This document shows positions 1 to 41,786 of a stretch of 64,000 bases of DNA, piece after piece. How positions within the stretch are numbered: the first letter of the stretch is position 1; every line of letters begins with the position of its first letter. Where the stretch lies: NCBI GenBank assembly GCA_017484205.1, contig JAFUTO010000032.1:6067-70066 (forward strand). The letters run 5' to 3'. The position numbers and the translations under genes are program-made. Source of the stretch: Bacilli bacterium. Lineage in GTDB: Bacteria > Bacillota_I > Bacilli_A > RF39 > UBA660. Under the pieces are notes generated by a model. It had not been told where the DNA came from and did not search any database. It saw only the letters and a program-made list of their open reading frames with translations.

Positions 1-620
1 ACTTTTTCTTCTGAATATTCAGCACCATAATCTTTAATATTTTCTATAATACCACCTGAACTTGTATAATAAGTAACTAATTCTTTAGTAGTATATCCCA
101 TAATTGCAACATTGCCTCTATATACTATAAGATCATTTATATGGCTTTGTAAAAAAGCATCATTTACACTATCCAATAATATATTTACTCTTCCATATCC
201 TCTTTTTGTATCCTTTGCTTTAGTTTTTATAATTGTGTTAGTTATTATAGGTGATAACAAATCCATATTAGCAATTTTTTCTATATCACCACTAAACAAA
301 TCTTTTTCAATATCACTTACATTAGTTTTATGGTATTCGTCTATATTCGCATTTTTAAGCATTTTATAATTTAAATATTGATTTATTATTCTATGTTTTA
401 TATTATCATAGTTATCATTAGATTGTATACCATCAAATATTTTATCTAATTCATTAAAATCATCAAATTCTAATACAATATCTAAAAATCCATAATCTTT
501 TTTTAATAATTCTTTTATTTTTTCATATTTATCTTTTTCTTCTTCACTCATAAAGTAAATACGATTATCATAATAATGACTTTGTAAGTCACTTTCTACT
601 TTACTCTCAATACTTTTCAT
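1..620 (-). CDS. hypothetical protein (C-terminus beyond window start); paralog of the next gene
   Basis: ATG at 618-620 (minus) preceded by AGGTGG. Open frame runs to position 1. Translation (MKSIESKVESDL...KDYGFLDIVLEFDDF...MGYTTKEL...) is alignable with the 629..1243 product. Confidence 0.45.
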   Translation of the reverse strand, partial: MKSIESKVESDLQSHYYDNRIYFMSEEEKDKYEKIKELLKKDYGFLDIVLEFDDFNELDKIFDGIQSNDNYDNIKHRIINQYLNYKMLKNANIDEYHKTNVSDIEKDLFSGDIEKIANMDLLSPIITNTIIKTKAKDTKRGYGRVNILLDSVNDAFLQSHINDLIVYRGNVAIMGYTTKELVTYYTSSGGIIENIKDYGAEYSEEK

Positions 621-628
621 AAAACCAC

Positions 629-1243
629 CTACTTTAGTTCCTTTCTTTTTGCCTTAGTACAGTATGCCTGATAGTCATGTGGAGATTCTATAGTGGCATA
701 TCCTAATGTATTTGTATAACTCTGTAATTCCATTGTAGTATAACCCATTCTAACAATATTACTTCTATATATAAATATGTCATTTATATTTTTTTGTAAA
801 GTTTCATTTAAAACTTCATCTAAGAAAAAATGTATTCTTGCTTTTGCATGTTCTTTTTCTAATGCCTTTTCTTTTATTTGGTATGACACACTTTCAAAAT
901 CAATAAATACTTTTAATAAATCATTTATATCACCATTAAATAATGCTTTGTTAACTTCATCTGTATTAACACCTGAATTTGTTAATATGCTGTAATATAA
1001 ATATGTCCTTGTAATAAAGTTTTTAAGTATTTCTATATCTTCTTTATTTTTATCCTTTGATATAGAGTCATACATTGGTTTAAGCTTACCATAATCTTTA
1101 AAATCTAATACAATATCTAAAAATCCATAGTCTTTAGTCAATAATTCTTTTATCATATTATAATTATCTTTTTCAGATTTTCCTAAATAATAAATTTTAT
1201 TATAACCACTAAAAGACTCAATATCATTTTTAATAATTTCCAT
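629..1243 (-). CDS. hypothetical protein, tandem paralog (no recognisable domain)
   Basis: ORF track 629..1258 uses a TTG start. ATG at 1241-1243 (MEIIKNDIE) is more plausible. Shares KDYGFLDIVLDF and MGYTT(M/K)EL motifs with the truncated upstream copy. Confidence 0.5.
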   Translation of the reverse strand: MEIIKNDIESFSGYNKIYYLGKSEKDNYNMIKELLTKDYGFLDIVLDFKDYGKLKPMYDSISKDKNKEDIEILKNFITRTYLYYSILTNSGVNTDEVNKALFNGDINDLLKVFIDFESVSYQIKEKALEKEHAKARIHFFLDEVLNETLQKNINDIFIYRSNIVRMGYTTMELQSYTNTLGYATIESPHDYQAYCTKAKRKELK

Positions 1244-1500
1244 AAAAACACCCCACAAAACAAAAAAAGATGGTATTAAGGAGTCATAAAGACGGTACCA
1301 TCCCTTGTTTAACTTAATTTGATAACGGGTAACCCCGGAAATCTCTTTCGAGTTCAGCTCTAAGGTAGTAACTATTAAACTTCTGTATTAGTTTCCATCA
1401 ACCACTAACTTTCTATAACATCTATTTAATAATCGTGTCCTTTTCTTTGCTTTCTATATTTATTTTAACACAAATGAAATTAAAAATAAATATTATTTAA

Positions 1501-1528
1501 GAAAAACAATACAATTTCTTGTATTGTT
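1501..1528 (-). terminator. intrinsic terminator downstream of the pilin-like gene
   Basis: ACAATACAA-tttc-TTGTATTGT hairpin (1507-1528) with an A-run on the plus strand (U-run on the minus strand). Confidence 0.45.
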
Positions 1529-1543
1529 TGTTTATCGTAACCA

Positions 1544-2548
1544 TTACTGTAAATCAGATTTAAGTACTGTAATGACAGGACGAACGCCAAACCATTGGTA
1601 ATGTGCACCAGCAGTCACATTCATTGTACCATCATTTGCTATAGCCCAGGCTCTTTCGCGACCATCACCATCGCTAGTCCAGTAACCATATGAACTCGCC
1701 ATATTTTCATATGACCAATTATATGAAATAATTTTAGTTGCTTCTTCTTTTGTTATTAATCTTGCTTTATATTCACTATAATTAATTGTATATGTGTTAC
1801 TACCCTCAACAGCATCAGTCAATGTATAAGAATAATTCACTGGTAGTACAGTTTTGTTCCAAGATAACGTATCATTTTTTAAAGATTCCAAAACTTCTTT
1901 TGGACCTGCATAAGTAGTTTCATCACTATTCCATACAACGCTACTTGTTGTATTATGATCTAGTATCATTGTTACTTTATCACTGGTTGATGAACTTGCT
2001 TCTATTACATAGAATTTCATACATCCTTCTTTTGTTCCTGTTGTTGATACTGGGCTTGTACATTTTGTTCCATTTGTTACATCAAAATTAATAGCATCTC
2101 CTACAGCATATGAAGCATATGTTGTTGGTACTTCAATATCACCTGATACTGCTCCTCCTGTTGATGTATAACTATATGTTAGTTTCCAACTACTTTCTTT
2201 ACATCCTGTCGCACCAATAACAAGACCATTTGAAATAGCATATTTTTCACATACTATATTATCATTGTCTGGAAAATCAAATCCAAACTTTGTATTTCTA
2301 TCGTTAATTGTTCCATCAGTTGTTATTGTTTTATCTAAATAACGAATATCCTTTCCTTCATTAAATGCCTTTGTCATAATTCCATATTCTATATTATCTA
2401 TATGGCCTTCTACACTCCTTGCATTTGCTGAATTCCTTGATGATGTTATTATATTACTTACTACTGGTGTTACTATAAGTGCGATTATTGCTAGTATTAC
2501 TATTACTGCTAATAACTCTATTAATGTGAATCCTTTTTTATTTTTCAT
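1544..2548 (-). CDS. prepilin-type N-terminal cleavage/methylation domain protein (type IV pilin-like, 334 aa, large C-terminal domain)
   Basis: N-terminus MKNKKGFTLIELLAVIVILAIIALIVTP is the class III signal/pilin motif (G-F-T-L-I-E). C-terminal ...GVRPVITV is shared with the 9745..10797 paralog. Confidence 0.7.
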   Translation of the reverse strand: MKNKKGFTLIELLAVIVILAIIALIVTPVVSNIITSSRNSANARSVEGHIDNIEYGIMTKAFNEGKDIRYLDKTITTDGTINDRNTKFGFDFPDNDNIVCEKYAISNGLVIGATGCKESSWKLTYSYTSTGGAVSGDIEVPTTYASYAVGDAINFDVTNGTKCTSPVSTTGTKEGCMKFYVIEASSSTSDKVTMILDHNTTSSVVWNSDETTYAGPKEVLESLKNDTLSWNKTVLPVNYSYTLTDAVEGSNTYTINYSEYKARLITKEEATKIISYNWSYENMASSYGYWTSDGDGRERAWAIANDGTMNVTAGAHYQWFGVRPVITVLKSDLQ

Positions 2549-2589
2549 ATTTTCCTCCTATACTTACTATTCTCTACCTTATTTATTTT

Positions 2590-2620
2590 ATTATACCCCC
2601 CCCCCGACAAAATTTGTCAA
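2590..2620 (-). promoter_or_regulatory. sigma-A type promoter (TTGACA - 19 nt spacer containing G10 - TATAAT) reading into the pilin-like gene
   Basis: Minus strand reads cccccTTGACAaattttgtcGGGGGGGGGGTATAATaaaat. -35 is at 2615-2620, -10 at 2590-2595, spacer 19 nt. RBS AGGAGG sits 6 nt before the ATG at 2548. Confidence 0.55.
2596..2605. repeat. homopolymeric C10 (G10 on minus strand) tract
   Basis: Directly seen. Unique in the window. Lies within the promoter spacer above and is flanked by GGGGG at 2621-2625. Confidence 0.9.
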
Positions 2621-2627
2621 GGGGGAA

Positions 2628-2641
2628 TTGGCATCAAAAAG
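2628..2641 (+). repeat. 14-bp direct repeat TTGGCATCAAAAAG (left copy) flanking the IS30-like element
   Basis: Identical 14-mer recurs at 4204-4217 in the same orientation. Confidence 0.7.
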
Positions 2642-4203
2642 CGTAAACTATTTATTTAACTTCCCATTTTTTATTTAATGGGATTTTAACTTTGGAATTG
2701 TTTGGGGAATCTATAGTTTTATATACTTCAAATTTATACTATAATAACTATTGTATTTTTAGCTTATTTGAAAGGAGTATATATGAAAGTTAAAAAATAC
2801 AAACACCTATCTTTTGAAGATAGATGTGTTATTGAAGAATTCTTAAACTATGGTTATAACTTTACTCAAATTGGTAATCGTTTAGGTAAAGATAGAACTA
2901 CTATTTCTGATGAAGTTAGAAAACATAGATTCCTTAGAAATACTTCTAATGTTCCTTGTCCTCTAACCGATAAACCTCCTTATGTTTGTAATAATTGTAG
3001 TAAAAAAAATTATTGTACTAAAATTAAATATACTTATAATCATGATATTGCTTATAATGATTATATGAAAACTTTAATTAATTCTAGAAGTCATATTAAA
3101 ATAACTCGTGATCAAATTGATTCTATTAATGATATTATTTCTCCTTTGATGATTCATAAGCATCATTCAGTTAATCAAGTTTTCATTGAATATCCTAATC
3201 TTCTACCTTTTTCTAAATCTACATTCTATAAATATATTGATTTGGGTATTCTTAATGTTAAAAACATTGATTTAGCTAGAAGAGTTAAATTTAAAGTTAA
3301 AAAAGAATATGAATATACTAGAACTAAAACTAATCCTAGAATTAAAATTGGTAGATTCTATACTGATTTTAAAGACTATCTAGAATATAATCCTAATGCT
3401 TCTATTGTTGAAATGGATACTGTTATTGGTACTTCTGGCGGGAAAGGTGGTAAATGTTTATTGACATTATTATTTAGAAAATATAATTTTATGTTAATTT
3501 ATTTACTTCCTTATAAACAATCGAAGTATGTTATAGAAGTTTTTAATAATCTTAAAAGAGATTTAGGTATTGATGAATTTAAAAGATTATTTGAAGTTAT
3601 TTTAACTGATAATGGTACTGAATTCTCTGATCCTGATAGTATTGAAATCGATATGGATACGGGTGATAAAGTTTCTAATTTATTCTATTGTGATCCTTCT
3701 TGTTCTTGGTAGAAAGGTTCCATTGAAAAGAATCATGAATTTATTAGATATATTTTACCTAAAGGTACTTCTTTTGCTTTCTTAAACCAAGATATGTGTT
3801 TTAAGATGGCTTCTCATATCAATTCAGTCCCAAGAGTTTCTTTAAATAACTCTTCACCATATGTTGAATCTTTCAATTTTATTGGTAAAGATAATATGCA
3901 TATATTTAAAATAAAAAAGATCGATTATAATGACATCGATCTTACATCTAAAATATTTAAATAATATTTTAGAGTTTTAAGCTAAAAATACACATTTCTA
4001 TAATCATATTTACCGGGACGTTTCCTCTACCCATTTTTAGAAATTCAAACTTCCCGTCTTTTTGAATGTAATAATTTAACTTAAATCACTTATATATTAC
4101 CATATTTTTTTATTTTTTCAAATTTTTAACCCTTATTTTATGGGATGTTACAGAAAAACACCCCTTTTTATTTTCTTGTGGGATGTTTCTTTAAAATCTA
4201 ACG
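2642..4203 (+). mobile_element. IS30-family insertion sequence (boundaries approximate)
   Basis: Encodes an IS30-type DDE transposase. Imperfect terminal inverted repeats: GCGTAAACTATTTATTTAACTTCCCA at the left, CGTTAGATTTTAAAGAAACATCCCA as the complement of the right end. Flanked by 14-bp direct repeats. Confidence 0.55.
2783..3964 (+). pseudogene. IS30-family transposase interrupted by an in-frame TAG at 3710-3712
   Basis: AAAGGAG RBS then ATG at 2783. N-terminal HTH, core ...TDNGTEF... Then CDPSCSW-TAG-KGSIEKNHEFIRYILPKG (DDE motif region), continuing in the same frame to TAA at 3962-3964. Confidence 0.75.
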
Positions 4204-4217
4204 TTGGCATCAAAAAG
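4204..4217 (+). repeat. 14-bp direct repeat TTGGCATCAAAAAG (right copy)
   Basis: Identical to 2628-2641. Confidence 0.7.
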
Positions 4218-4225
4218 TTAATTTT

Positions 4226-4254
4226 TTATCAACAAAAAAATCCTCGTATGAGGA
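4226..4254 (-). terminator. intrinsic terminator of dnaI
   Basis: aaaaaaATCCTCgtatgAGGAT on plus, which is ATCCTC-ATAC-GAGGAT followed by a U7 run on the minus strand. Confidence 0.7.
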
Positions 4255-5175
4255 TTATTTTCTAAGATTTTTACTATCTATAAAAATATTATTAGTTAAT
4301 TGTTCAACTCTTTCAATGATTCTTCTAGATTTGATATTATCAACTTTATTCTTTGTAGATGCAAAATGTTCTTTTAAATCATCTATAGTTAAATTAGATG
4401 TAAAGAATGTTGGAAGATGATTCTCCATTCTATATTGAATTAATGGGCAAAAGATATCATCTCTACTCCATTCTGTATTATTTTCAGCTCCTATATCATC
4501 AATAAGTAATAATGGTACTGTTTTAACATAATCATATTTTTCTTTAAAATCACTATCAAAAGAACTTTTAAGCTCAAGTAAGAATTCTGGCCAAAATACA
4601 ATAGCGCTTTTATAACCTTTTTTTGCTAATTCATTAAAAGCCGCACTTACTAAATATGTTTTACCACATCCAAAGCTACCATTTAGGTATAGACCTTTTT
4701 GGTGTTGATTCTTTTTATAATTATTAATAAATTTTTGTAGATATTCTATTGTTTCAAATCTTTTTTTATCATTTGTATATATATCTTTCCAAGAAGCGTT
4801 TTTTATATCTTCGGGTATGTGATTTATATATACATTTTTTTGATATTCTGTTTCTTTTTGATACTTTTCATTATACTTACACATCTTATACTCAAATATA
4901 ATTTTTTCATCTTTTAATCTTGGTAAATAGCAGTATCCTGTAACTTGATTTTTACATTCTAATAAACCTTTACATTTAGAACAGTTATCATACTCTACTG
5001 CACTTTTTTCTAATATAGATGTATATTTAATTAAGAACTTTCTAGCTACTTTTAAATCCATAACTAGTTTTTTAAATTCAGGTTTTTCTAATGCCTCATC
5101 ATAAGCTTTTTCAAGATTATAATTTAGTTTAGCTTTAAAACCTTTATCTTCTAACTCGTTTAATACCTGTTTCAT
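4255..5175 (-). CDS. dnaI: primosomal protein DnaI (helicase loader)
   Basis: N-terminal Cys-rich zinc domain (CSKCKGLLEC...), Walker A GSFGCGKTYL, AAA+ fold. Adjacent to a dnaB-like gene as in Bacillus. Confidence 0.75.
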   Translation of the reverse strand: MKQVLNELEDKGFKAKLNYNLEKAYDEALEKPEFKKLVMDLKVARKFLIKYTSILEKSAVEYDNCSKCKGLLECKNQVTGYCYLPRLKDEKIIFEYKMCKYNEKYQKETEYQKNVYINHIPEDIKNASWKDIYTNDKKRFETIEYLQKFINNYKKNQHQKGLYLNGSFGCGKTYLVSAAFNELAKKGYKSAIVFWPEFLLELKSSFDSDFKEKYDYVKTVPLLLIDDIGAENNTEWSRDDIFCPLIQYRMENHLPTFFTSNLTIDDLKEHFASTKNKVDNIKSRRIIERVEQLTNNIFIDSKNLRK

Positions 5176-5180
5176 ATTAT

Positions 5181-6452
5181 CTACTCCATATTCTTTAATT
5201 TTTCTATGAATGCTTTTTCTTCTTCTTCAGTTGCCTCATCTATATCAGATTCATTATTAAGCCATACTGGATCTTTTTTAACTACTTTTTTAGTTACTGT
5301 TTTTCTTTTCTTTTCTTCTATAGCCTTATTCATCGCATCTGGCACTGTTTTTATATTATCTCTTTTCCATTCCAAAGCTTTACTTTTTACATAAGATGGA
5401 ACTAATCTATTTTCACTAGTTTTAAGCACATAATCAAGTAATACATTCGCGACACCTGGTGTTAACCCTATAGTATCAATAAGCATACTTACAATATCTG
5501 CTTCTTCTTCAGTAAGTCTTTCTACATTAGATTTACTTGCTAAAAATTCATAAGTAGACATAGTTTCAAAATCATAAATTTTCTTATCTTTTTTAGACAT
5601 TCCATTTAACTTAGTTCTTAAATATTCAGGTTGATTTTTGTATATTAATCCCACTTTAGAACTACCTGTTTCAAATTTATATAATCTTTTTGCAGACTTT
5701 CTAAGTTCATCTATATTGATTTTATGACTTTCATCTATAGAACTTAAAATAACTTTTTCGATCATATCATCATCATAGTTATATATCATAGCTAATTTAT
5801 ATATTAAATCTTTAGTAGCATTTGTAACACTTCTATGATTTAATACTTGATCAGGTATAACACTTAATATATTGTTTAAATTTATAGTTGGTTCATATGC
5901 AATACCTAATCTATTTTCCCTTTTTATTTGTTCAATATCATCAATGTCAATTAAATTCATTGTTTTAAATACATCATTAAATCTAACTGTTATATCTTTA
6001 TAATCTTTTAGGTCTATTTTAGGTACTTTAAAATATTCTTTGATATTTGTAAATTCTTTACTACCAACGGCATCATGAAGTAATGTAGATAAAACTGGAT
6101 CTTTAAAGAAATCAGATATTTTTAAAGGTGAATATAATTCATATACATAACTATTTGTATCTTCAGATTCTTTTAAATATGTTTTTAATAAGCCTATAGC
6201 TTCTAAAGATTCTCTTGCTTCTGCAATTTTATCAACATTTATATTCATACTCCTCATAAGATTATGATGTGTAAGTGTATTTGATGAAATTTCATATTTA
6301 TCTAGATATGACCATAATGTTAGATATAAACTAATAGAGATACTACCAATTATTGGTTGATATAACATTGTAAGTATTTTATGATCATAATCATGTAATA
6401 TTGTACGATTAACAACAACAAAGATGTCAGCTGGCATTACTATATTAGTCAT
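5181..6452 (-). CDS. dnaB: replication initiation/membrane attachment protein DnaB (DnaD-domain family)
   Basis: C-terminal DnaD-like region LTEEEADIVSMLIDTIGLTPGVANVLLDYVLKTSENRL...ALEWKRDNIKT. Operon partner of dnaI. Confidence 0.6.
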   Translation of the reverse strand: MTNIVMPADIFVVVNRTILHDYDHKILTMLYQPIIGSISISLYLTLWSYLDKYEISSNTLTHHNLMRSMNINVDKIAEARESLEAIGLLKTYLKESEDTNSYVYELYSPLKISDFFKDPVLSTLLHDAVGSKEFTNIKEYFKVPKIDLKDYKDITVRFNDVFKTMNLIDIDDIEQIKRENRLGIAYEPTINLNNILSVIPDQVLNHRSVTNATKDLIYKLAMIYNYDDDMIEKVILSSIDESHKINIDELRKSAKRLYKFETGSSKVGLIYKNQPEYLRTKLNGMSKKDKKIYDFETMSTYEFLASKSNVERLTEEEADIVSMLIDTIGLTPGVANVLLDYVLKTSENRLVPSYVKSKALEWKRDNIKTVPDAMNKAIEEKKRKTVTKKVVKKDPVWLNNESDIDEATEEEEKAFIEKLKNME

Positions 6453-6509
6453 TATATCACCTTATTTCTATATCAATTATAACATTTTAAGATATCTAAA
6501 TAAAGAAAA

Positions 6510-6534
6510 AAGATTAAAAAAAGAAATATTTCTA
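6510..6534 (-). terminator. intrinsic terminator of spo0A
   Basis: AGAAATATTTCT palindrome (6522-6533) followed on the minus strand by TTTTTTAAUC. Confidence 0.5.
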
Positions 6535-6538
6535 TTTC

Positions 6539-7312
6539 TTATGCACGTACTTTATTATTATCTAGTCTAAGTTTATCAGCAAGAGTAACTAAAAATTCTG
6601 AATTAGTAGGTTTACTTTTATCAAAATCAACACTTTGACCGAATAAATCTTCAGTCATTTTCCAATCAGATCTAGTCCAACCTACTTCTATTGCATGTCT
6701 CATTGCCCTTTCAACTCTAGAAGTTGTTGTATTATATCTATCAGCAATTCTAGGATATAAATATTTAGTTATATTCCCTATCATTGTAGGATCATCATAA
6801 ATAATTGTTATACCCTCTCTAATATATTGATATCCTTTTATATGTGAAGGAATACCTAATTCATGTAACATTTTAGTAATTGTCATTTGTAATCCACTAT
6901 CAACAAAATCTACAATTTTATTCGCATCTGGAATAGAAAGATTTTTAAGTGTTTTTATTCTTTTTTCTAAATCAGATAAATCATAAGGTTTAGACATAAA
7001 ATAACTTGCACCTAACTTACCAACAATATGTACCATATCATCAGTATCATAACTAGTTTCTACAATTATTCTTTTATTTATATGTCTATTTTTCATCTCT
7101 TCTAGAACATATACACCATCTTTCTTAGGCATAATGATATCTAATAGAATCATATCAATATCGTCTTTATGTTTCTCTATAATATCGATAGCTTCTTCAC
7201 CATCATGTGCTTCATACTTCACTTCAATCTCACTACTATCTTTAAAATATTCTTTTATAACATTAACCATACCTTCATTATCATCTACTACCAACATTTT
7301 AACCTTTTCCAT
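6539..7312 (-). CDS. spo0A: sporulation master regulator Spo0A
   Basis: REC domain (LVVDDN...D...K) plus the Spo0A-specific C-terminal domain: HELGIPSHIKGYQYIREGI and ITKYLYPRIADRYNTTTSRVERAMRHAIEVGW. Confidence 0.9.
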   Translation of the reverse strand: MEKVKMLVVDDNEGMVNVIKEYFKDSSEIEVKYEAHDGEEAIDIIEKHKDDIDMILLDIIMPKKDGVYVLEEMKNRHINKRIIVETSYDTDDMVHIVGKLGASYFMSKPYDLSDLEKRIKTLKNLSIPDANKIVDFVDSGLQMTITKMLHELGIPSHIKGYQYIREGITIIYDDPTMIGNITKYLYPRIADRYNTTTSRVERAMRHAIEVGWTRSDWKMTEDLFGQSVDFDKSKPTNSEFLVTLADKLRLDNNKVRA

Positions 7313-7446
7313 AATTTTCTCCTTCTATTATAATTATATAATTGTTCATTTCATTAATCTAGAATGAACAAAATCTTCTTTTGTTGATATATGACGAATA
7401 ATGTCTAATTTTATCATAAACAAAAGAAGTTTCACTAAAAAACTTC

Positions 7447-8454
7447 TTACTGCTTACTTCTTTGTCTTATATTCAAGACAATACCACCTAAAATAATTCC
7501 TAAATAGTATGTAATAAATCTCCATACTAACATAACAGAATTCACACTACTACCTAGAATAAATACTCCAAATAATGATGTAAATGCATATTCAAGTCCA
7601 CCAGTTCCACCTGGTACTGGGACAAACATACCAATCATTTCTACATATGCAATAGTAACTAATGCTTCATATACATTGAATGTATTTATACCCATACCTC
7701 TAGCTACTGTATATGGTACTAAAGCAAAACCTAATAAACCAATAAAGGTATATATATATCCTAGAATAAATGATTTTTTATCCTTTACAATTAGTTTTGC
7801 CCCATCATGTAGACTTTCTATATAATCATTCCACTTACTAATAACAGCTTTTTTATCTTTTACCAATCTTACTTTATTTAATAGTTTAATGATAAAATGA
7901 ATAACAATTTTATCAAATTTCTTATTAAACATAATTAGTAATAAGAAAGCCATAAATAAGATATTAATAACATAACCTAATATTGAGAAATATCTAATAG
8001 CGTTACTAGGTGGGAATAATTTCATAAATTGGTTAGAGAAAATAGCTATTGTAGCTAATGTGAATAGAACTAATTGATGTATAAATGAAGATAATACAAT
8101 GATATTAGTACCATCTGTTCCTTTCACACCATCATTTTTTAATGACAATACTTGAAATGGTTGACCACCTGACGAAAATGGTGTTATACCATTAAAGAAC
8201 ATTGTTTCCATTTGTAACCTTAAAGCTTTACCATATGAATAATTCTTATTATACTTTCTAACATATCTTTTGATAACAAAAGCTTTAAATATCCAATATA
8301 AACTCATTAATACTACTGAATATATAACCCATAAAGGATTCATTGTTAGAATATTATTTACAACATTACCAAAGTCATCTTTAAGCGAGAAATATAATAC
8401 TAATACTGTAAATATAAATAAAATAATATAATTAAATCTTTTATTTTTCATCAA
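7447..8454 (-). CDS. integral membrane protein, flippase-like/UPF0104 (lysylphosphatidylglycerol-synthase TM-like) family
   Basis: Eight predicted TM helices. Overall architecture resembles the YbhN/UPF0104 family. Weak assignment. Confidence 0.4.
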   Translation of the reverse strand: MMKNKRFNYIILFIFTVLVLYFSLKDDFGNVVNNILTMNPLWVIYSVVLMSLYWIFKAFVIKRYVRKYNKNYSYGKALRLQMETMFFNGITPFSSGGQPFQVLSLKNDGVKGTDGTNIIVLSSFIHQLVLFTLATIAIFSNQFMKLFPPSNAIRYFSILGYVINILFMAFLLLIMFNKKFDKIVIHFIIKLLNKVRLVKDKKAVISKWNDYIESLHDGAKLIVKDKKSFILGYIYTFIGLLGFALVPYTVARGMGINTFNVYEALVTIAYVEMIGMFVPVPGGTGGLEYAFTSLFGVFILGSSVNSVMLVWRFITYYLGIILGGIVLNIRQRSKQ

Positions 8455-9631
8455 TTACTTCTATACCAGGTAATTTGTTACCCGCAAGCATCTCTAATGA
8501 TGCTCCTCCTCCTGTTGAAATATGTGTGAAATCTTTAGCAAACCCCATATTTATAGCTGCTGAAGATGTATCTCCACCACCAATTATAACTGTTCTGTTA
8601 CCTACTAAAGATGTTAATATATCTTTAGTACCTTTACTAAACTTATCTATTTCAAATATTCCCATAGGTCCATTCCATATAACTGTTTTACTATTCAAGA
8701 TATAACTTTTAAATAGTTCAACTGTTTTAGGACCAATATCTACACCTATATCAGTATCATTCATATCTTTTATATCTTTAGTATAGATATCACTATTACC
8801 ATCTACTGTTATAGATGTTAATGTATCTATAGGAAGTATTATTTTATCACCATAGTTTTCTAATAAGTCATTTACATAATCCATATTATCATTATCCAAT
8901 AATGAATTACCTACTTTATATCCTTTAGCTTTTAAGAATGTATATGCCATTCCACCACCTATCAAGATATTACTGGCTTTATTTACTAGGTTGTTAATAA
9001 CACCTATTTTATCTTTTACTTTAGCTCCACCTAATATAATAATAAATGGTTCTTCTGGATTTTCTATAGTAGGAAGCATAGCCTCTAATTCTTTTTTTAT
9101 TAAAAATCCTATACCATTTGGTAAATGTGAGGCAATTCCTACATTTGACGCATGGGATCTATGAGATGTACCAAATGCATCATTTATAAATATATCACCT
9201 AGACTTGCCCAATATTTACCTAATTCAGGATCATTTCCACTTTCTTTATTACCATCTAAATCTTCATATCTCGTATTTTGAAGTAAAATAACATCTCCAG
9301 GATTCATATTATCTACTGTATCTTCTACTTCCTTACCTCTAGTTGCATCCATGAATTTTACAGGTTTAGATAGTAATTCTGATAATCTTGGAACTACTAT
9401 ATTTAAATTATTCTTTTCTAAATCACTTTCTTCTTTAATCCTACCTAGATGTGATAATAGTATTACTTTTGCATTATTATCTATAGCATACTTAATAGTC
9501 TCTAATGATTCTTTAATCCTATTATCATCTTCTATTTGTTTGTTTTTTATAGGTACATTAAAATCAACCCTAATTATTACTCTTTTATTATCTAGTTTAA
9601 AATCTGTAATACATTTTTTACTAGTTTCCAT
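8441..9631 (-). CDS. pgk: phosphoglycerate kinase
   Basis: Full-length PGK: RVDFNVP, HLGRxKE-like segment, GGGASLE C-terminal motif. Confidence 0.95.
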   Translation of the reverse strand: METSKKCITDFKLDNKRVIIRVDFNVPIKNKQIEDDNRIKESLETIKYAIDNNAKVILLSHLGRIKEESDLEKNNLNIVVPRLSELLSKPVKFMDATRGKEVEDTVDNMNPGDVILLQNTRYEDLDGNKESGNDPELGKYWASLGDIFINDAFGTSHRSHASNVGIASHLPNGIGFLIKKELEAMLPTIENPEEPFIIILGGAKVKDKIGVINNLVNKASNILIGGGMAYTFLKAKGYKVGNSLLDNDNMDYVNDLLENYGDKIILPIDTLTSITVDGNSDIYTKDIKDMNDTDIGVDIGPKTVELFKSYILNSKTVIWNGPMGIFEIDKFSKGTKDILTSLVGNRTVIIGGGDTSSAAINMGFAKDFTHISTGGGASLEMLAGNKLPGIEVIDEK

Positions 9632-9744
9632 AAGTATATTATCCTTTCTATACTACTCCGTCATCATTATAACATTTATAAAATACAAAATAAAGTATTA
9701 ACACATATAAAAGTGTAAAGTAAAAGACTAGTATGTAAACTAGT

Positions 9745-10797
9745 CTATTCTAATATATCTTTATGTACTTCTATAACCGGGCGAACACCGATTGCATAAT
9801 CATGCGATGGAGCTCGATTATACTTTATACTTCCAACACCATTCGAAGCAACTTCAATAGTTCTTACACAATTATTTGTTGTTGTTGCCAAAGCATCGGC
9901 TGTCCAATACCCATTAATATTGTTTGTAAAAGTACTTTTATATTTATTATATAGATTATCATCATTAGCATATTTTATGTTAATATAGAAATTAGGATTA
10001 TTTAATGTATAATCTGATCGAGTATTAGGTACATTAAAATCTTTTAATGTTGCCAATCTAGCTTTATAACCACCATCTTCATAAGGAATTGTATATGATG
10101 TTCCATCATCAAATGTAAATGTATAATTATTTGGAATAATAGTATTATTCCACTCGCTTGTATCATCTAATAATGCCTCTAAAACTTGAGTTGGTCCTAA
10201 TGATGTGTCAAGGCCACTTCTCCACATAACAAGTGGTGTTGTATTATGATCTAATATCATTGTTACAGTTTGACTTGTCGCTGGACTATCAGATAAAACA
10301 AAAAATCTCATACAGCCTTCTTTTATGCCTGTAGGTGTACCATTATCATTTATATTTTTATCCGCCAGTTTCTTTGTACATTTAAAACCAGTTGTTACAT
10401 TAAAATATACTTCTTGTCCAGATGTATAAACAGTATACTCTGGATCAGAATATGTTAAACCACTAATGATAGTCTTACATGATTCTTCTTTATATGCAGG
10501 TGTTCCATCTACAACATAAACACACCCTTTAAGTTCCGTATTATCTATAGGATTAATTAGCACACCTAAATATCCAGCATCTTGTAATGCTGTTACTGAT
10601 ATTTGTTTTAATACACCACCATTATTACTAGCATATGTCTGAGCAGCTAAAACAATATCATTCACCATACTATTATATGAATCTCTATTATTATTTTTTA
10701 TTGAATTAGTAATAGCTGGGACTGCAATTAAACCAAGAATGGTAATAACTACTATAATTGCTAATACTTCAGTTAATGTAAAACCCTTCTTACTCAT
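9745..10797 (-). CDS. prepilin-type N-terminal domain protein (pilin-like, 350 aa), paralog of 1544..2548
   Basis: MSKKGFTLTEVLAIIVVITILGLIAVP N-terminus. Shares central MILDHNTT and C-terminal GVRPVIEV blocks with 1544..2548. Confidence 0.7.
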   Translation of the reverse strand: MSKKGFTLTEVLAIIVVITILGLIAVPAITNSIKNNNRDSYNSMVNDIVLAAQTYASNNGGVLKQISVTALQDAGYLGVLINPIDNTELKGCVYVVDGTPAYKEESCKTIISGLTYSDPEYTVYTSGQEVYFNVTTGFKCTKKLADKNINDNGTPTGIKEGCMRFFVLSDSPATSQTVTMILDHNTTPLVMWRSGLDTSLGPTQVLEALLDDTSEWNNTIIPNNYTFTFDDGTSYTIPYEDGGYKARLATLKDFNVPNTRSDYTLNNPNFYINIKYANDDNLYNKYKSTFTNNINGYWTADALATTTNNCVRTIEVASNGVGSIKYNRAPSHDYAIGVRPVIEVHKDILE

Positions 10798-10855
10798 ACT
10801 ATCACCTATATTAATTATAAATCAAATATTGAATTTACACAAGAAAAAAGTAGTT

Positions 10856-12538
10856 TTACCTACTTTTGCTTTTTGAATATGTATTATCATATGGATTATA
10901 ATTGATGTTTGTATAATTAATATGTGGATTTCTATATAATCTATATCTTTCCATTCTTTCTTCTTTTTTCTTTTTAATAGCAACTGCTACTCCAATTCCA
11001 GATAAAATACCTATTAAAGCTGCTCCTCCAATAATAAACTTTTTATTATTAAGAATAATTTCATATTTCTTTTTAGAAATATCTTGCTTTATATGTTTAG
11101 TAGGTTCTATTTCATCTGGTATTTCTCTAATCACTAAACCTTCAGGCATATATCTAGGTTTATGAGATTCCTTGCTACTATCAACTATTTCAGTTGGATC
11201 TTCTAAATACCACGATAATTTATCGATTTCTTCTTGATTACCCTCTTGAAATAAGTATTCTATTGGTTGTACCTTAAATGAATAAGTTTTCATTGTTACC
11301 TTACCATTTTCATCTAACATGGTAGCTTCCTTATCAGGAATATATGTATCCTTACCATCTATCCAAGTTGGATCTACATAGTAATAATAATCTCCTATTC
11401 TAATAGCATTCCATGCATGATTATTAGATAACATTAAATATGTATCTAGTCCTAATGAATGTGATAAAGCTGTAGTGACTGCTGCATAGTTACCACATAT
11501 CTGAGTATCACTCTCAAAAGCTCCCATCATCTCGCCTTTTTCATAAAACTTGCTATGATCTATTTTATCTCGTTCATTATTTGCGAGTAATTCAGATACT
11601 TCTTCATCATATGTATAGTTTTCTAATACATATTCTAAAATAGCATTTAATTTTTCCTGTTCTTTAGCATCATCACTTAAATTTAAGCTTTTTACTATTT
11701 CATCAATTTCATTATTTACCATTCTTAAAGTTGACATATCATCAGTTCTAATATCTACATTTGCATCTTCCAATTTATTTAAATCTTTATTATTGAAATA
11801 CATTGCAATATCATAAGGTTTCCCATTCAATGACAATGATTTTAAATGGGTTAGATCTTTATAATGTAAGTTTGATATTACACTTATACCTAAATCTAAA
11901 TTATCTATATTTTTTAGACTTTCTAAATATGTAGAATCTATATTCATTGCTTTTTCTTTGCTACCTATAGTTAATGTCTCTATATGTGGTATATCTTTTA
12001 AAAATGGATATCTAGACTCACTAAAAGTAATATCTTCACTAAAAGATTTAATATTTATACTCATACTCTTCTTAAATCTTGAACCATCTATATTATTAAA
12101 TTTGTATGTTTTAGATTCATCTGTTATAATCAACGTTTCTAGATTAGGCATATAATTTAAAAAATCATAATTATCATCATCTTTAACTAATAAAACAAAA
12201 CCTGTTATATGTTCTAAATCTTCATATGTATATGTATTATTATTTATAACTCTTTCATCATCAGATGTTACTGCATATATATTATCAATTTTTATTGTTT
12301 CATCTTTACTATATTTTGGAATATTATATACTATTTTTTCATTTTCTTCTTGATGTTCTAGAGAAATTTCTTCTTTTGGCTCTTGTATATCTTTTCTATC
12401 AATATGACAACCTGATAGTGTCAATACCATTAAAGATATTCCACCGGCTGATATTATTTTTCTCTTAACGCCATTTAATGTTAAACTAGTTAAATCTATT
12501 TTTTTATGTTTATCATTTACCTTTATCATAATCTTCAC
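10856..12538 (-). CDS. lipoprotein with leucine-rich-repeat-like region, transglutaminase-like Cys-His-Asp domain and C-terminal TM anchor
   Basis: Signal/lipobox ...LTLSGC. QICGNYAAV...NHAWNAI...VDPTW matches the transglutaminase-like cysteine protease core. C-terminal TM IIGGAALIGILSGIGVAVAI followed by a basic tail. Confidence 0.5.
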   Translation of the reverse strand: MKIMIKVNDKHKKIDLTSLTLNGVKRKIISAGGISLMVLTLSGCHIDRKDIQEPKEEISLEHQEENEKIVYNIPKYSKDETIKIDNIYAVTSDDERVINNNTYTYEDLEHITGFVLLVKDDDNYDFLNYMPNLETLIITDESKTYKFNNIDGSRFKKSMSINIKSFSEDITFSESRYPFLKDIPHIETLTIGSKEKAMNIDSTYLESLKNIDNLDLGISVISNLHYKDLTHLKSLSLNGKPYDIAMYFNNKDLNKLEDANVDIRTDDMSTLRMVNNEIDEIVKSLNLSDDAKEQEKLNAILEYVLENYTYDEEVSELLANNERDKIDHSKFYEKGEMMGAFESDTQICGNYAAVTTALSHSLGLDTYLMLSNNHAWNAIRIGDYYYYVDPTWIDGKDTYIPDKEATMLDENGKVTMKTYSFKVQPIEYLFQEGNQEEIDKLSWYLEDPTEIVDSSKESHKPRYMPEGLVIREIPDEIEPTKHIKQDISKKKYEIILNNKKFIIGGAALIGILSGIGVAVAIKKKKEERMERYRLYRNPHINYTNINYNPYDNTYSKSKSR

Positions 12539-25558: not shown

Positions 25559-27583
25559 TTAATCTACTTTAAATGATTTGGCTAGGCTTGTATTACCTGC
25601 TTTATCTACTACATAAGCATAATATTCACCAGCAGATAAATTTGTAAATGTTTGGGATTGTTGCCATGTATTTTGCCCTGTGCATCCACTTATATCATAA
25701 CTTTGTAACACACAATATAGTTTAACTCCTGAAAACTTATCAGTTGCATTTATTGTTGCTGTGGATCCAGATATTTGTACATTTGTAATTTTAGGAATTT
25801 CAGAGTCAATTTTTAAAATTGTAAAGCCTCCACTTTTTTTACCTTGTCTACCATCTGATATATAGGCAAATACTTTTTTATCTTCACTATCATCTGTCGT
25901 ATCATATTTTAAAGTTATCGTGGTATTAGAATCAACATTAACTTTATACCAAGTACCAACCTCAACTGTACTTCCAACTACACTAATGCAGTTATTAGGA
26001 TAGTCTGGTTCGTTTCCACATGATTTTTGAATTGTTCCTGATGTAATTGTTGCTTGCTTTTCACTATATATATAATATTCCGGAACACTTATATTGTTTT
26101 TGTTTTCTGTTTTAAAATCTACTAATATTCCTTCCTTATTAATCCAACCATCAGTATGACCTCTAGAGTACTCAAGAGTTCCTTCAATTTGTCCAAGAAT
26201 TGGCATAATAAAATCTTTCGTTGTTGCAGAACCTTCTGTACATGTACTTTCACCTAACTTATCTATAACACATATTTGATAATAATATGTTTTACTTGTT
26301 TCTAACCCTGTTAATATACATTTTTCATTTGTTGGATAAAGAGCATTTCGAGTATAATTATTTTCTTCTTCACCATACTTACAAGTTATTTTGTTGGTAT
26401 CATAATAATTACCTGAAATACCATAGTCTATTTGTATTCTTTCTGTATATATACTACGTGATTGCTCCATTATTGACGGATTTGAATCATCTACTTTAAG
26501 TATTTCAAGTTCAGAACTTAAAATTTTATTATGGCCATCTGAAATATAAGCAATTAGCCTATTTATTTCATTCGAGTAATTACTATAAACTATACTAATA
26601 TCATCTTCTACTTTATACCACGTATTCGCGACTAAATTTGTATAATTGCCATTAACATTACAAGAATTATTAGGTTTTAAACCAGTACCACACGAACCTA
26701 ATATTTTACCAGACACAACCAAACCTGTTCTTGTACTCATAACATAGCGTTCTACTAAATCTTCATCTATATTATCATCTATATATTTAACATTTGCCGT
26801 TTGACTTCTTACCCAATTATCTAATGGTGGTGTTGGTTCTGTTGTAAAAGTAAGAATCGGAGCAGTTATAGTACTAGTCTTAACTGTTTTACTTCCTAAC
26901 GTTTCTGATAATAAAGTTCCATTTTGGCCTGTTACTTCTATAGTATACTCTGTATTACTATCTAAATCATTAAAAGCAACACTTACATCATCAGTAGGAT
27001 TTATTATTTCCTCTGTTTTTAACAATACTAATCCCTTATATAACTTAACAATATATCTAATTCCAGTTTCTGGATCTTCCATTGTTCCTTTAGGTATTAT
27101 TACTATAACTCTATTGCTTGAAGTCCTTATATCAACATCATCAATATCACCATTTATTTTAGGAGGAGTATCGTCTAATTTAGCACAACTATCAGTAATT
27201 TCCAAATTACCTATATACCCAGATGCACACCATGTTCCATTACTTAAAGCATCTGAATATATATCATCCTCACGAGTAATATAAACTCTACCACCTATAG
27301 GTATTTCTCCACCTAGTTCTAAAGAATCTCCGGATTTTGTAGAACAAGATACGCCATCGCATACTAATGATATAGGATATGTTGGAACATATCCATGATT
27401 AAGAGAATACTTAGAAATATAATTACTTGCTGAATCTAATACCAAATTAATCGATTCTTGAAAAGCACTTTTTTTAGTATTATAAATAATGCCATTAATA
27501 ATTGGTATTGCAACTAAAGCTAAAATACCTAATATTACAATTACTGCTAGTAATTCTATTAATGTGAATCCTTTCTTTTTCAT
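25559..27583 (-). CDS. large (674 aa) prepilin-type N-terminal domain protein with Ig/FN3-like repeats
   Basis: MKKKGFTLIELLAVIVILGILALVAIP N-terminus. Long Thr/Ser-rich beta-type repeats. Only 21 nt downstream of ezrA. Confidence 0.65.
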   Translation of the reverse strand: MKKKGFTLIELLAVIVILGILALVAIPIINGIIYNTKKSAFQESINLVLDSASNYISKYSLNHGYVPTYPISLVCDGVSCSTKSGDSLELGGEIPIGGRVYITREDDIYSDALSNGTWCASGYIGNLEITDSCAKLDDTPPKINGDIDDVDIRTSSNRVIVIIPKGTMEDPETGIRYIVKLYKGLVLLKTEEIINPTDDVSVAFNDLDSNTEYTIEVTGQNGTLLSETLGSKTVKTSTITAPILTFTTEPTPPLDNWVRSQTANVKYIDDNIDEDLVERYVMSTRTGLVVSGKILGSCGTGLKPNNSCNVNGNYTNLVANTWYKVEDDISIVYSNYSNEINRLIAYISDGHNKILSSELEILKVDDSNPSIMEQSRSIYTERIQIDYGISGNYYDTNKITCKYGEEENNYTRNALYPTNEKCILTGLETSKTYYYQICVIDKLGESTCTEGSATTKDFIMPILGQIEGTLEYSRGHTDGWINKEGILVDFKTENKNNISVPEYYIYSEKQATITSGTIQKSCGNEPDYPNNCISVVGSTVEVGTWYKVNVDSNTTITLKYDTTDDSEDKKVFAYISDGRQGKKSGGFTILKIDSEIPKITNVQISGSTATINATDKFSGVKLYCVLQSYDISGCTGQNTWQQSQTFTNLSAGEYYAYVVDKAGNTSLAKSFKVD

Positions 27584-40446: not shown

Positions 40447-41664
40447 TTAGATTAACTTGGAAGATGCATCTATTGATTCCTCCTGATTTTTATTTTTCTT
40501 TTGAAGATGTTTTTCTTTAAATTTATTCCAAAATGACACTGTTTGAACTTGTTCTACTGGTGATTGCTCAACTACTGGAGTTGTTTGTTCAACTATAGGA
40601 GTTTCTACTACAGGAGATATTTGTTCAACTATAGGAGTTTCTACTACAGGTGCTACTTCTTCTACTACAGGTGGCTTTGTTACCTCATTAATTGCTTCTT
40701 TTGTTTCTACAGCTTCTTGTTGTTTTAATTTTGGATTTTTGGATAGTAAAAATTCAAGTCTTTCTTCTACGGTAACAACCTTACCATTTTCATCTACAAT
40801 ATTTTCACCTGTCTTACCATTTATCATAGGAATTGGAACACCTAATTCATCTAAATCTTCTTTATACTTTGCTAGTACACCAAAAACATCAGTTTTTTTG
40901 GAACCACTTAAAAATAATTCAGGTTCAAATATTTCTTCTAGACTATGTGGATTTGTAGCAATTGCAGAATCAATTATTCTTAAAGACATAGACATATCTT
41001 GACTTATTGCTAATTTATCATCACTACTTATATTATATTTACCATCTTGTAAAATATTAGCTGTATGTCTATAACGCATATCTAATATTTGTTTTAAAGA
41101 GTCAGCTGGTAATTGTGGGATTACACGTTCAACATTTTCACTCCATGCTGCATGTTCTATTACATCCATTTCATGAATTAAATCAATATCATCAGTACCC
41201 CATGTATCTTCCTTTGAAGCATATGACACTGCTCCATGATCACTTAAATCAACACCACCTATATCTTGACCGAAATTTGGCAAGTCTCTTACTTCGCCTG
41301 TAAACATAGCTGGACTTGATGATACTGCTCCATGATCACTTAAATCAACACCACCTATATCTTGACCAAAATTTGGTAAATCTCTTACTTCTCCAGTAGA
41401 CATAGTTGGACCTGATGATACTGCTCCATGATCGCTTAAATCAACACCACCTATATCTTGACCGAAATTTGGTAAATCTCTTACTTCTCCAGTAGACATA
41501 GTTGGGCCTGATGATACTGCTCCATGATCGCTTAAATCAACACCACCTATATCTTGACCGAAATTTGGTAAATCTCTTACTTCTCCAGTAGACATAGTTG
41601 GACCTGATGATACTGCTCCATGATTTAATAAATCCTTATCTATATTTGTTTTATATTCATTCAT
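40447..41664 (-). CDS. repeat-containing protein (4.3 x 32-aa tandem repeats, Pro/Val-rich C-terminus)
   Basis: Repeat unit DLSDHGAVSSGPTMSTGEVRDLPNFGQDIGGV. C-terminal PVVE(T/Q)P repeats. Confidence 0.5.
   Translation of the reverse strand: MNEYKTNIDKDLLNHGAVSSGPTMSTGEVRDLPNFGQDIGGVDLSDHGAVSSGPTMSTGEVRDLPNFGQDIGGVDLSDHGAVSSGPTMSTGEVRDLPNFGQDIGGVDLSDHGAVSSSPAMFTGEVRDLPNFGQDIGGVDLSDHGAVSYASKEDTWGTDDIDLIHEMDVIEHAAWSENVERVIPQLPADSLKQILDMRYRHTANILQDGKYNISSDDKLAISQDMSMSLRIIDSAIATNPHSLEEIFEPELFLSGSKKTDVFGVLAKYKEDLDELGVPIPMINGKTGENIVDENGKVVTVEERLEFLLSKNPKLKQQEAVETKEAINEVTKPPVVEEVAPVVETPIVEQISPVVETPIVEQTTPVVEQSPVEQVQTVSFWNKFKEKHLQKKNKNQEESIDASSKLI
41220..41628. repeat. 96-bp tandem repeat (about 4.3 copies, near identical) within the CDS
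   Basis: Directly visible 96-nt periodicity on the plus strand (ctccatgatc(a/g)cttaaatcaacaccacctatatcttgacc(g/a)aaatttgg...). Confidence 0.85.
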
Positions 41665-41786
41665 ATAAGCACCTCTATCTTGTCTTTATGATACTATATT
41701 TTAAAAATAGTTGTCAATAAAATGTAATATTTATTTTCAATTATAACAAAAGTTTACACTTTTAATTACACAAAAAAAGATATAAA

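Follow-up and report, generated by a model that had tools for sequence, protein, structure and literature searches.

The locus described here raises the question of whether a run of ten G residues inside a predicted promoter works as a phase-variation switch for a surface protein gene. The run is located in a 64,000-nucleotide stretch of a Bacilli bacterium genome (assembly GCA_017484205.1, contig JAFUTO010000032.1, positions 6,067 to 70,066 of the forward strand). The whole stretch is called the window below, and coordinates are window coordinates. The gene behind the promoter encodes a prepilin-type protein of 334 aa (accession MBR1377202.1). A previous reading made from the sequence alone had proposed that the tract changes its length by slipped-strand mispairing and thereby switches the gene. 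From the comparison of this locus with other assemblies and with related loci, a probability of about 0.75 is given to the reading that the poly-G run is a slippage-driven, phase-variable spacer of a sigma-A-type promoter for a prepilin-type, lectin-like surface protein. The tract would very probably act as an on/off switch or dimmer, i.e., a mechanism of a known kind in a new lineage.

Promoter, tract and downstream gene

The following features were assigned to the locus. From the C5 run to the ATG the letters were read directly, and the promoter is a predicted one.

2625-2621, minus strand: C5 (CCCCC)
2615..2620, minus strand: -35 hexamer TTGACA of the predicted promoter, 6/6 consensus
2606..2614, minus strand: aattttgtc, the 9-nt non-G part of the spacer
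2596..2605, minus strand: homopolymeric G10 (C10 on the plus strand) abutting the -10, the proposed hypermutable element
2590..2595, minus strand: -10 hexamer TATAAT of the predicted promoter, 6/6 consensus
Between -10 and ribosome-binding site, minus strand: A/T-rich leader of 30 nt
2554..2559, minus strand: ribosome-binding site (RBS) AGGAGG, 5 nt before the ATG
2548-2546, minus strand: ATG of the pilin-like open reading frame (ORF)
1544..2548, minus strand: prepilin-type gene, 334 aa, by Pfam and NCBIfam
2599..2625, no strand: imperfect palindrome CCCCC-TT-GACAAA-t-TTTGTC-GGGGG(GG) over the -35 and part of the tract, by DNA fold

The spacer between TTGACA and TATAAT is 19 nt long and includes the G10, and in this point the letters match the sequence-only reading. 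The RBS had been placed about 35 nt downstream; AGGAGG in fact begins 30 nt past the -10. The tract is 48-57 nt distant from the ATG, i.e., it lies inside the predicted core promoter and less than 200 bp from the start codon. With ten G residues in the window and twelve in other assemblies, it reaches the length at which G/C runs are prone to slippage (at least 7-8).

The GC content of the window is 26.4%, and the G10 is the sole G/C run of at least 7 in the 64 kb; the runner-up is a C6 at 36786. By base composition, approximately 9e-4 C runs and 4e-6 G runs of at least 10 are expected in the window. The previous statement that such a run is singular here and improbable by chance was thus borne out. 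The perfect pattern TTGACA-N15-21-TATAAT was observed five times in the window against 0.67 expected, and none of 100 shuffles reached five. The remaining perfect promoters that are intergenic and on the minus strand have spacers of 16 and 17 nt. Therefore, the organism uses canonical sigma-A promoters, and a spacer of 19 nt is off their usual optimum. The standard promoter scan was restricted to spacers of 16-18 nt, and the tract promoter is missing from it because its spacer exceeds that limit. An Rfam search of window positions 1-12000 matched no family, so a riboswitch or leader RNA does not explain the locus.

The palindrome over the -35 folds as a DNA hairpin of -9.9 kcal/mol (z = -2.2), and 8 of 200 shuffles folded equally well. 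Its core has no further copy in the window beyond chance. It was considered as a recurrent operator and rejected on these two grounds, i.e., no extra window copies beyond chance and a hairpin marginally above shuffles. L094 and the class-B cassettes described below also have short palindromes resembling it ahead of their tracts.

The protein begins with the leader MKNKKG-FTLIELL (N-terminus MKNKKG followed by FTLIELLAVIVILAIIALI) and has the elements of a class III leader, i.e., a leader ending in G, F at +1, E at +5, and a hydrophobic helix. The prepilin methylation motif was recognized by PF07963 (E 3.5e-9) and by TIGR02532 (32.8 bits vs a cutoff of 16.3), which agrees with its earlier description as pilin-like. 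No Pfam domain besides PF07963 matched. The homologs number 6799 at E <=1e-3, and a Pfam scan of the family found DUF6273 in 7 of 32 members and Lcl_C in one. In the AlphaFold 2 model, helices at 9-42 and 46-64 are followed by beta strands, with a pLDDT (predicted local distance difference test) of 76 overall and below 50 at residues 24-41. The best match of this model in a Foldseek search of the PDB was the immunoglobulin A (IgA) peptidase of Thomasclavelia ramosa (E 7.5e-5), with weak C-type lectin matches next; there was no pilin among the top PDB matches of the model, in which residues 24-41 have a pLDDT below 50. The C-terminal part appears beta-rich and related to DUF6273/Lcl_C (C-type-lectin-like) domains. 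From the model and the motifs, the product is probably a pilin-anchored, ligand-binding surface protein.

Tract length and recurrence of the design

Three further copies of the window locus, i.e., L001, L004, and L119, were retrieved. An exact search of the assembly index with the window pilin gave no match; contigs were obtained for the 100%-cluster representative P0001 and the member P0125, and none for P0003. The copies in ENA belong to a series of metagenomes from the ruminant gastrointestinal tract. All three have G12 vs G10 in the window, at 99.84-99.95% identity over 4.5-8.5 kb. The tract was the sole indel in every pairwise comparison of the four assemblies, and 6-10 A/T runs of at least 7 were unchanged. 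The -35, -10, RBS, and ORF were intact in all four. Tract length is thus polymorphic between close relatives with conserved flanks. A length change confined to the tract would be the behavior expected of a hypermutable tract, and it argues against a general homopolymer error. In a JGI metagenome scan for this exact locus with a variable tract, 0 matches were obtained.

All 8 single-nucleotide polymorphisms (SNPs) among the four assemblies are placed within the pilin gene at 2141-2417 (approximately 280 nt), and the 4-6 kb around it have none. The 5' part of the paralog P0002 (L002, 6001-6490) is almost the same as this SNP-bearing stretch, and the promoter, 5' untranslated region (UTR), and 3' part of P0002 differ. 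The SNP mosaic suggests gene conversion among paralogs, or cross-paralog consensus errors or mixing in the assemblies.

Length series were also found at no fewer than four other orthologous loci with flanks that are 97-100% identical; contigs ending inside the tract were omitted from them. In the human gut, behind TTGACA-acaatatgc-Gn-TAAAAT, one series has G7 in L112, G9 in L114, and G11 in L103 (genes 98-99% identical), and another has G8 in L096, G9 in L102, and G10 in L093 (genes 97-99% identical). A locus adjacent to a recD2-like gene has G9 in L139, G11 in L137, L138, and L141, and G12 in L136 and L140; its gene side differs at 0-5 positions per 300 nt, and the spacer is n+8, i.e., 17-20 nt. 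G11 in L148 is matched by G12 in L145 and L146, and G7 in L157 by G9 in L155. The contigs left out (L071, L142, L144, L149, L158, and L164) end exactly at the tract, and such frequent contig ends may be an indirect hint at length changes within a population. The comparison of homologous loci that had been proposed with the sequence-only reading therefore gave tract lengths that are not invariant (G10 vs G12; G7/G9/G11, G8/G9/G10, G9/G11/G12, G7/G9).

The same design recurs at dozens of other loci. An LRR_5 prepilin-like gene of the same metagenome is preceded by TTGATT-9 nt-G8-TATAAT with a spacer of 17 nt, and the closest paralog has an ordinary promoter without a tract, also with a spacer of 17 nt. 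For an unbiased sample, 80 loci (382 kb) were chosen among the GTDB species representatives with protein similarity as the sole criterion; almost all were uncultured gut 'Bacilli' or 'Tenericutes' metagenome-assembled genomes (MAGs) of 23-35% GC. Of the 21 G/C runs of at least 7 in this sample, 19 stand on the sense strand upstream of a prepilin motif, at most 300 nt away, and one further run precedes a family member with a different N-terminus. Among the 104 prepilin motifs, 18% have such a tract. Another 35 sites, with G7-G11, came from JGI metagenomes searched for at least seven G residues, a -10-like hexamer, a distance of 28-58 nt, and a stretch coding for KGFTLIE, in this order.

When all 60 tracts are taken together, 49 have a -35-like hexamer on one side and a -10-like hexamer on the other, and there is almost never a gap between the tract and the -10. 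The gap from the -35 to the tract is 9 nt in 30 of these 49 promoters, and the full range of the tract in this design is G7-G13. Spacer lengths are distributed over 15-21 nt (15 nt in 3 promoters, 16 in 3, 17 in 4, 18 in 10, 19 in 14, 20 in 10, and 21 in 4) with the mode at 18-19. These lengths, lying around the 16-17 nt of tract-free promoters, would fit a family sampled in mixed ON and OFF states.

A set of such promoters was found in one human-gut species (MGYG-HGUT-02248 and the OIZF01 metagenome), in which at least 15 prepilin-like genes stand behind a near-identical cassette, GTTTGCTATATGCAAAC-G8/9/10-TATTTTAAATACCTC. These class-B cassettes (loci L047, L049, L051, L052, and L066; OIZF01* contigs L086-L118) mostly have G10 and in a few cases G8 or G9, and continue downstream to ...GGAAGGA-ATG. 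An anti-RBS-like CCTCTTC is placed upstream of their RBS. G-tract promoters were also observed ahead of proteins without a prepilin leader, i.e., in L126/L127 (genes 1-1137), L136/L137 (1-1108), and L155 (1-885). These proteins start, for example, with MEKDNKKVIVSTIVASVFLLVL... and MKDRGFIYASILVSVFLL..., and each has one hydrophobic helix at the N-terminus. Prepilin-type genes are therefore not the only ones with a poly-G cassette.

In some relatives, the poly-G is within the prepilin leader ORF, i.e., in L121, L122, L123, L032 (1172-1181), and L077 (92-101). L121 is in frame at G9 (MVTNCKNGGGYLNNTQRKGFTLIELL), with its tract approximately 221 nt from the transposase ATG, and the other four are one base out of frame. 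Since these leader-ORF tracts occur beside the promoter tracts, transcriptional and translational (frameshift) switches would coexist in the superfamily.

The proposed mechanism is as follows. Slipped-strand mispairing at replication would add G residues to the tract or remove them. With a changed number, the -35 and -10 would stand at another distance and in another helical phase relative to each other, and promoter strength would change accordingly. Transcription would start at this promoter, and switching would be frequent and reversible. G8 would give the canonical spacer of 17 nt, and the alleles G10 (19 nt) and G12 (21 nt) are both probably weak or OFF. The window locus would be one of a large set of contingency promoters before paralogous prepilin-like genes in uncultured low-GC gut Bacilli. 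With at least 15 such promoters per metagenome in some species, a population would express a stochastic and changing subset of its surface proteins. The slipped-strand mechanism proposed from the sequence is supported by G10/G12 at a near-identical locus, by the recurrent design, and by the other length series.

The IS30-family element and the remaining window

On the other side of the promoter lies an IS30-family insertion sequence (IS), of which the ends were set by comparison with 5 copies of a 78%-identical IS.

2628..2641, no strand: left 14-bp target-site duplication TTGGCATCAAAAAG, ending 7 nt from the -35
2642..4203, plus strand: IS30-family insertion sequence, 1562 bp
4204..4217, no strand: right 14-bp target-site duplication, the second exact copy of TTGGCATCAAAAAG

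The two exact copies of TTGGCATCAAAAAG in the window, against 0.04 expected, bracket the element exactly. Its left end (2642) is 21 nt upstream of the -35. The element had previously been noted as an incidental neighbor of the promoter. Its presence was confirmed, at a shorter distance than the transposase ORF implies, and it appears to be specifically associated with such tracts instead of being incidental.

The transposase ORF (2783-3964) was recognized by HTH_38 (E 5e-12) and, on the ORF as truncated by a TAG codon, by NCBIfam transpos_IS30 (E 1.4e-16) at 61 bits, which is below the 80-bit cutoff. Full-length homologs of 393-402 aa are uninterrupted, 72-82% identical, and named IS30 family transposase by their sources. 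The in-frame TAG at 3710-3712 is present in all four assemblies. At this position the window reads SW*KGS, and IS30 transposases typically read SWQRG, which we take to be the consensus. Recoding of TAG was considered and rejected because TAG is a normal stop here, ending 18 of the 58 window ORFs, and the homologs are uninterrupted. For the same reasons, the window copy is probably nonsense-inactivated and defective.

The ends of the element read CGTAAACT... and ...AATCTAACG, with subterminal AAC(A/T)TCCCA repeats. An alignment of the ends as terminal inverted repeats was no better than shuffles (56/500). A perfect 15-bp inverted repeat (2752-2766/3978-3992) was rejected as the IS ends, since homology in related copies reaches 2642 and 4203 and the 14-bp duplication flanks those positions. 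With 14 bp in this element and 14-16 bp in its relatives, the target duplication does not match the 2-3 bp of IS30. Just within the left end, a terminator-like hairpin is found on the plus strand at 2662-2683, TCCCATTTTTTATTTAATGGGA then TTTTAACTTT, and related copies have kept its CCCG...CGGG equivalent. The hairpin may stop transcripts from running on into the transposase gene.

Related IS copies were retrieved purely by transposase identity (P0133, P0191, P0224, P0173, and P0189) and are located in L121-L123, L126-L130, L136-L141, L145-L150, L153, L155, L157, and L162. Among 16 distinct insertion sites with enough flank, a G8-G17 tract adjoins 12; the sites without a tract are L154, L156, L159, and L163. 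The orientation of the tract-adjoining copies is always the same, and the transposase is divergent from the tract-bearing gene. Where both junctions are readable, the layout is the IS end, a duplication of 14-16 bp, 22-25 nt, and the tract, and the duplicated and intervening sequences differ between sites. At approximately one tract per 18-64 kb, adjacency of such precision is expected by chance at about 1e-3 to 1e-4 per insertion. As a lead, these sites suggest that the IS may select its target by measuring from the G tract, i.e., that it may home to poly-G. The window shows both halves of this pairing, a tract promoter cassette and a tract-adjoining IS. The wider proposal joins a lineage-wide contingency system to a dedicated IS30 subgroup homing to poly-G in one orientation, with a 14-16-bp duplication placed 22-25 nt from the 5' edge of the tract. 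On the present sequence comparisons, we would put this at roughly even odds. The literature search gave no description of an IS targeting homopolymers, and, to our knowledge, no insertion sequence has been described of which the insertion point is set by the distance to a hypermutable homopolymer.

The window as a whole is a chromosomal segment of a low-GC, spore-forming member of Bacillota. Its products include Spo0A, DnaB/DnaI-type replication proteins, PGK, GAPDH, YqfD, EzrA, RecO, Era, tRNA synthetases, and SpoIIIAH. Two more prepilin-like genes (9745..10797 and 25559..27583) are present, both without a tract. Neither a prepilin peptidase nor an assembly ATPase or platform protein was found among the approximately 25 of 58 long window ORFs that were scanned. 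An ORF of 440 aa (12805-14127) with ORF6N and Rha-like (phage regulatory/antirepressor) domains is placed amid the housekeeping genes and adjoins a transglutaminase-like ORF of 560 aa (10856..12538) and the prepilin-like gene at 9745..10797. Tandem 96-nt repeats at 41214-41693 (at least 4 copies, 70-92% identical) are mostly within the ORF 40447..41664 and extend slightly past its end, which suggests a repeat-containing protein.

Alternative explanations and comparison with known systems

The tract could instead be a fixed promoter or operator element, i.e., a regulator site, a rigid spacer, or part of a palindrome, with its length differences being near-neutral drift. In its favor, the tract lengths of unrelated loci fall mostly in a narrow band at G9-G10, and the tract is always directly next to the -10. 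In the window, the tract and the C5 upstream of it are paired within a 12-bp hairpin or palindrome that overlaps the -35, and short palindromes stand ahead of the tract in some other classes as well. However, G7-G13 at orthologous loci with near-identical flanks is unexpected for a site of fixed length. The palindrome is marginal against shuffles, absent from most other tract promoters, and without another copy in the window. A long G run is moreover prone to slippage regardless of its role, so a fixed element would be compatible with a switch. This explanation is considered unlikely. A smaller chance still is given to the possibility that the promoter does not drive the gene now, or has never done so, and that the tract is mainly a landmark for the IS30-family element, of which the insertion decoupled or silenced the gene. 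The IS end at 2642 with its duplication, the related copies at 22-25 nt plus the duplication from the tract at 12 of 16 sites, and the duplication in L122, which includes the RBS of the upstream start codon, are in line with it. However, the core -35 and -10, RBS, and ORF are intact in four assemblies, and the loci L005-L118 bear tracts without this IS nearby (tblastn with the transposase matched the window locus only). Therefore, the tracts are older than the IS and do not depend on it.

The homopolymer or its length difference might also be an artifact of sequencing or assembly, by poly-G in two-color chemistry or homopolymer miscalling. Poly-G is a known Illumina artifact, several contigs end at the tract, and the length difference is one between consensus assemblies. 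However, the tract is internal to contigs of 76-220 kb in four assemblies made by different assemblers (scaffold_ and k141_ names), and no other homopolymer differs between them. Many independent studies have yielded MAGs and metagenomes in which equivalent tracts have this promoter position and strand. An artifact is thus very improbable, the least probable of these explanations. Some points nevertheless weigh against the phase-variable spacer. The G10 vs G12 difference could in principle be a miscall by assembler or Illumina reads specific to the tract, though nothing else differs, and three of the four assemblies agree on G12, i.e., the locus is not wildly variable. The commonest spacers of the tract promoters (18-20 nt) exceed the canonical 17, which would mean that most loci are OFF, that the optimum differs here, or that the tract has another role. 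The IS end 21 nt upstream of the -35 may also alter or silence the promoter.

Phase variation by repeats in promoter spacers is textbook knowledge for a few pathogens, i.e., Neisseria, Haemophilus, Mycoplasma, and Treponema. There is hardly any record of it in the uncultured Bacilli with reduced genomes that are common in the guts of ruminants and humans. If the phase-variable reading is true, these commensals would have many pilin-anchored, lectin-like surface proteins at their disposal in changing combinations. This would matter for adhesion, for escape from phage and IgA, and for the heterogeneity at strain level that the consensus assemblies of metagenomes hide. A G7 or longer run abutting the -10, upstream of a GFTLIE leader, offers a sequence signature for contingency loci in MAGs. 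If confirmed, the fixed-distance insertion of the IS30 subgroup would add a new mode of target-site selection and would serve as a natural label for tract loci. The family-wide scale and the IS association lift the locus above a routine single-locus case.

In the operational definition used for Neisseria phasomes, a transcriptionally phase-variable gene has a simple sequence repeat within 200 bp of the ATG (PMC5953494). The window locus falls under this definition, with the promoter being a predicted one. In Neisseria meningitidis, the length of the spacer tract in porA (poly-G) and opc (poly-C) reportedly gives graded or on-off transcription, as van der Ende in 1995 and Sarkari in 1994 are said to have found. 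The likeness is the G/C homopolymer between the -35 and -10 of a surface protein gene. However, the present hosts are low-GC, Gram-positive-type, uncultured gut Bacilli and not a proteobacterial pathogen, the tract is always against the -10, the cargo is prepilin-type and lectin-like, and the system is known here from sequence alone.

The vlp genes of Mycoplasma hyorhinis, in work credited to Yogev in 1991 and to Citti and Wise in 1995, are said to have a poly-A in the promoter spacer and combinatorial ON/OFF expression. Both systems are multigene surface-protein families in which each gene has a conserved promoter, 5' UTR, and leader with a spacer homopolymer, and the class-B loci amount to at least 15 near-identical cassettes in one metagenome. 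The lineage is also close, as Mollicutes are within Bacilli in GTDB. The Vlp system of M. hyorhinis is cited in PMC11868660. The present tracts differ in being poly-G and not poly-A and in preceding a prepilin (class III) leader and not a lipoprotein signal peptide. Here the genes are also single and scattered among housekeeping genes, not clustered, and the host is a spore-former (Spo0A, YqfD, and SpoIIIAH). The poly-G tracts of the subfamily II tpr genes of Treponema pallidum reportedly modulate expression, a result attributed to Giacani in 2007. In these genes and in Campylobacter jejuni, poly-G runs of about 7-12 vary between and within strains and belong to surface-related genes. The joint occurrence of intragenic and promoter tracts is similar, here with leader-ORF tracts in L121, L122, L032, and L077, but the phyla and gene families are others, and the tracts of C. 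jejuni are mostly intragenic.

For the insertion sequence, the nearest parallel is IS1630 of Mycoplasma fermentans, an IS30-family element with target duplications of 16-26 bp (PMC3317919), in contrast to the 2-bp duplication of IS30 itself (PMC9333248). The reported targets of IS1630 are inverted repeats that vary in sequence, according to the title of Calcutt 1999 as cited in PMC3317919. The present elements share the IS30-type transposase and the long duplications, i.e., 14 bp in the window and 14-16 bp in relatives. However, these duplications are non-palindromic, their common feature is the G tract 22-25 nt away, and the elements are 1.56-1.72 kb vs approximately 1.38 kb.

A paper on TANB77 pilins was considered as a precedent and rejected, since it concerns unrelated Tad pilins, and the literature search turned up no account of prepilin genes with poly-G promoters in gut Bacilli. 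As far as the sequences tell, the system described here differs from the known ones in its lineage, in its prepilin-type, lectin-like cargo, and in the invariant placement of the tract against the -10.

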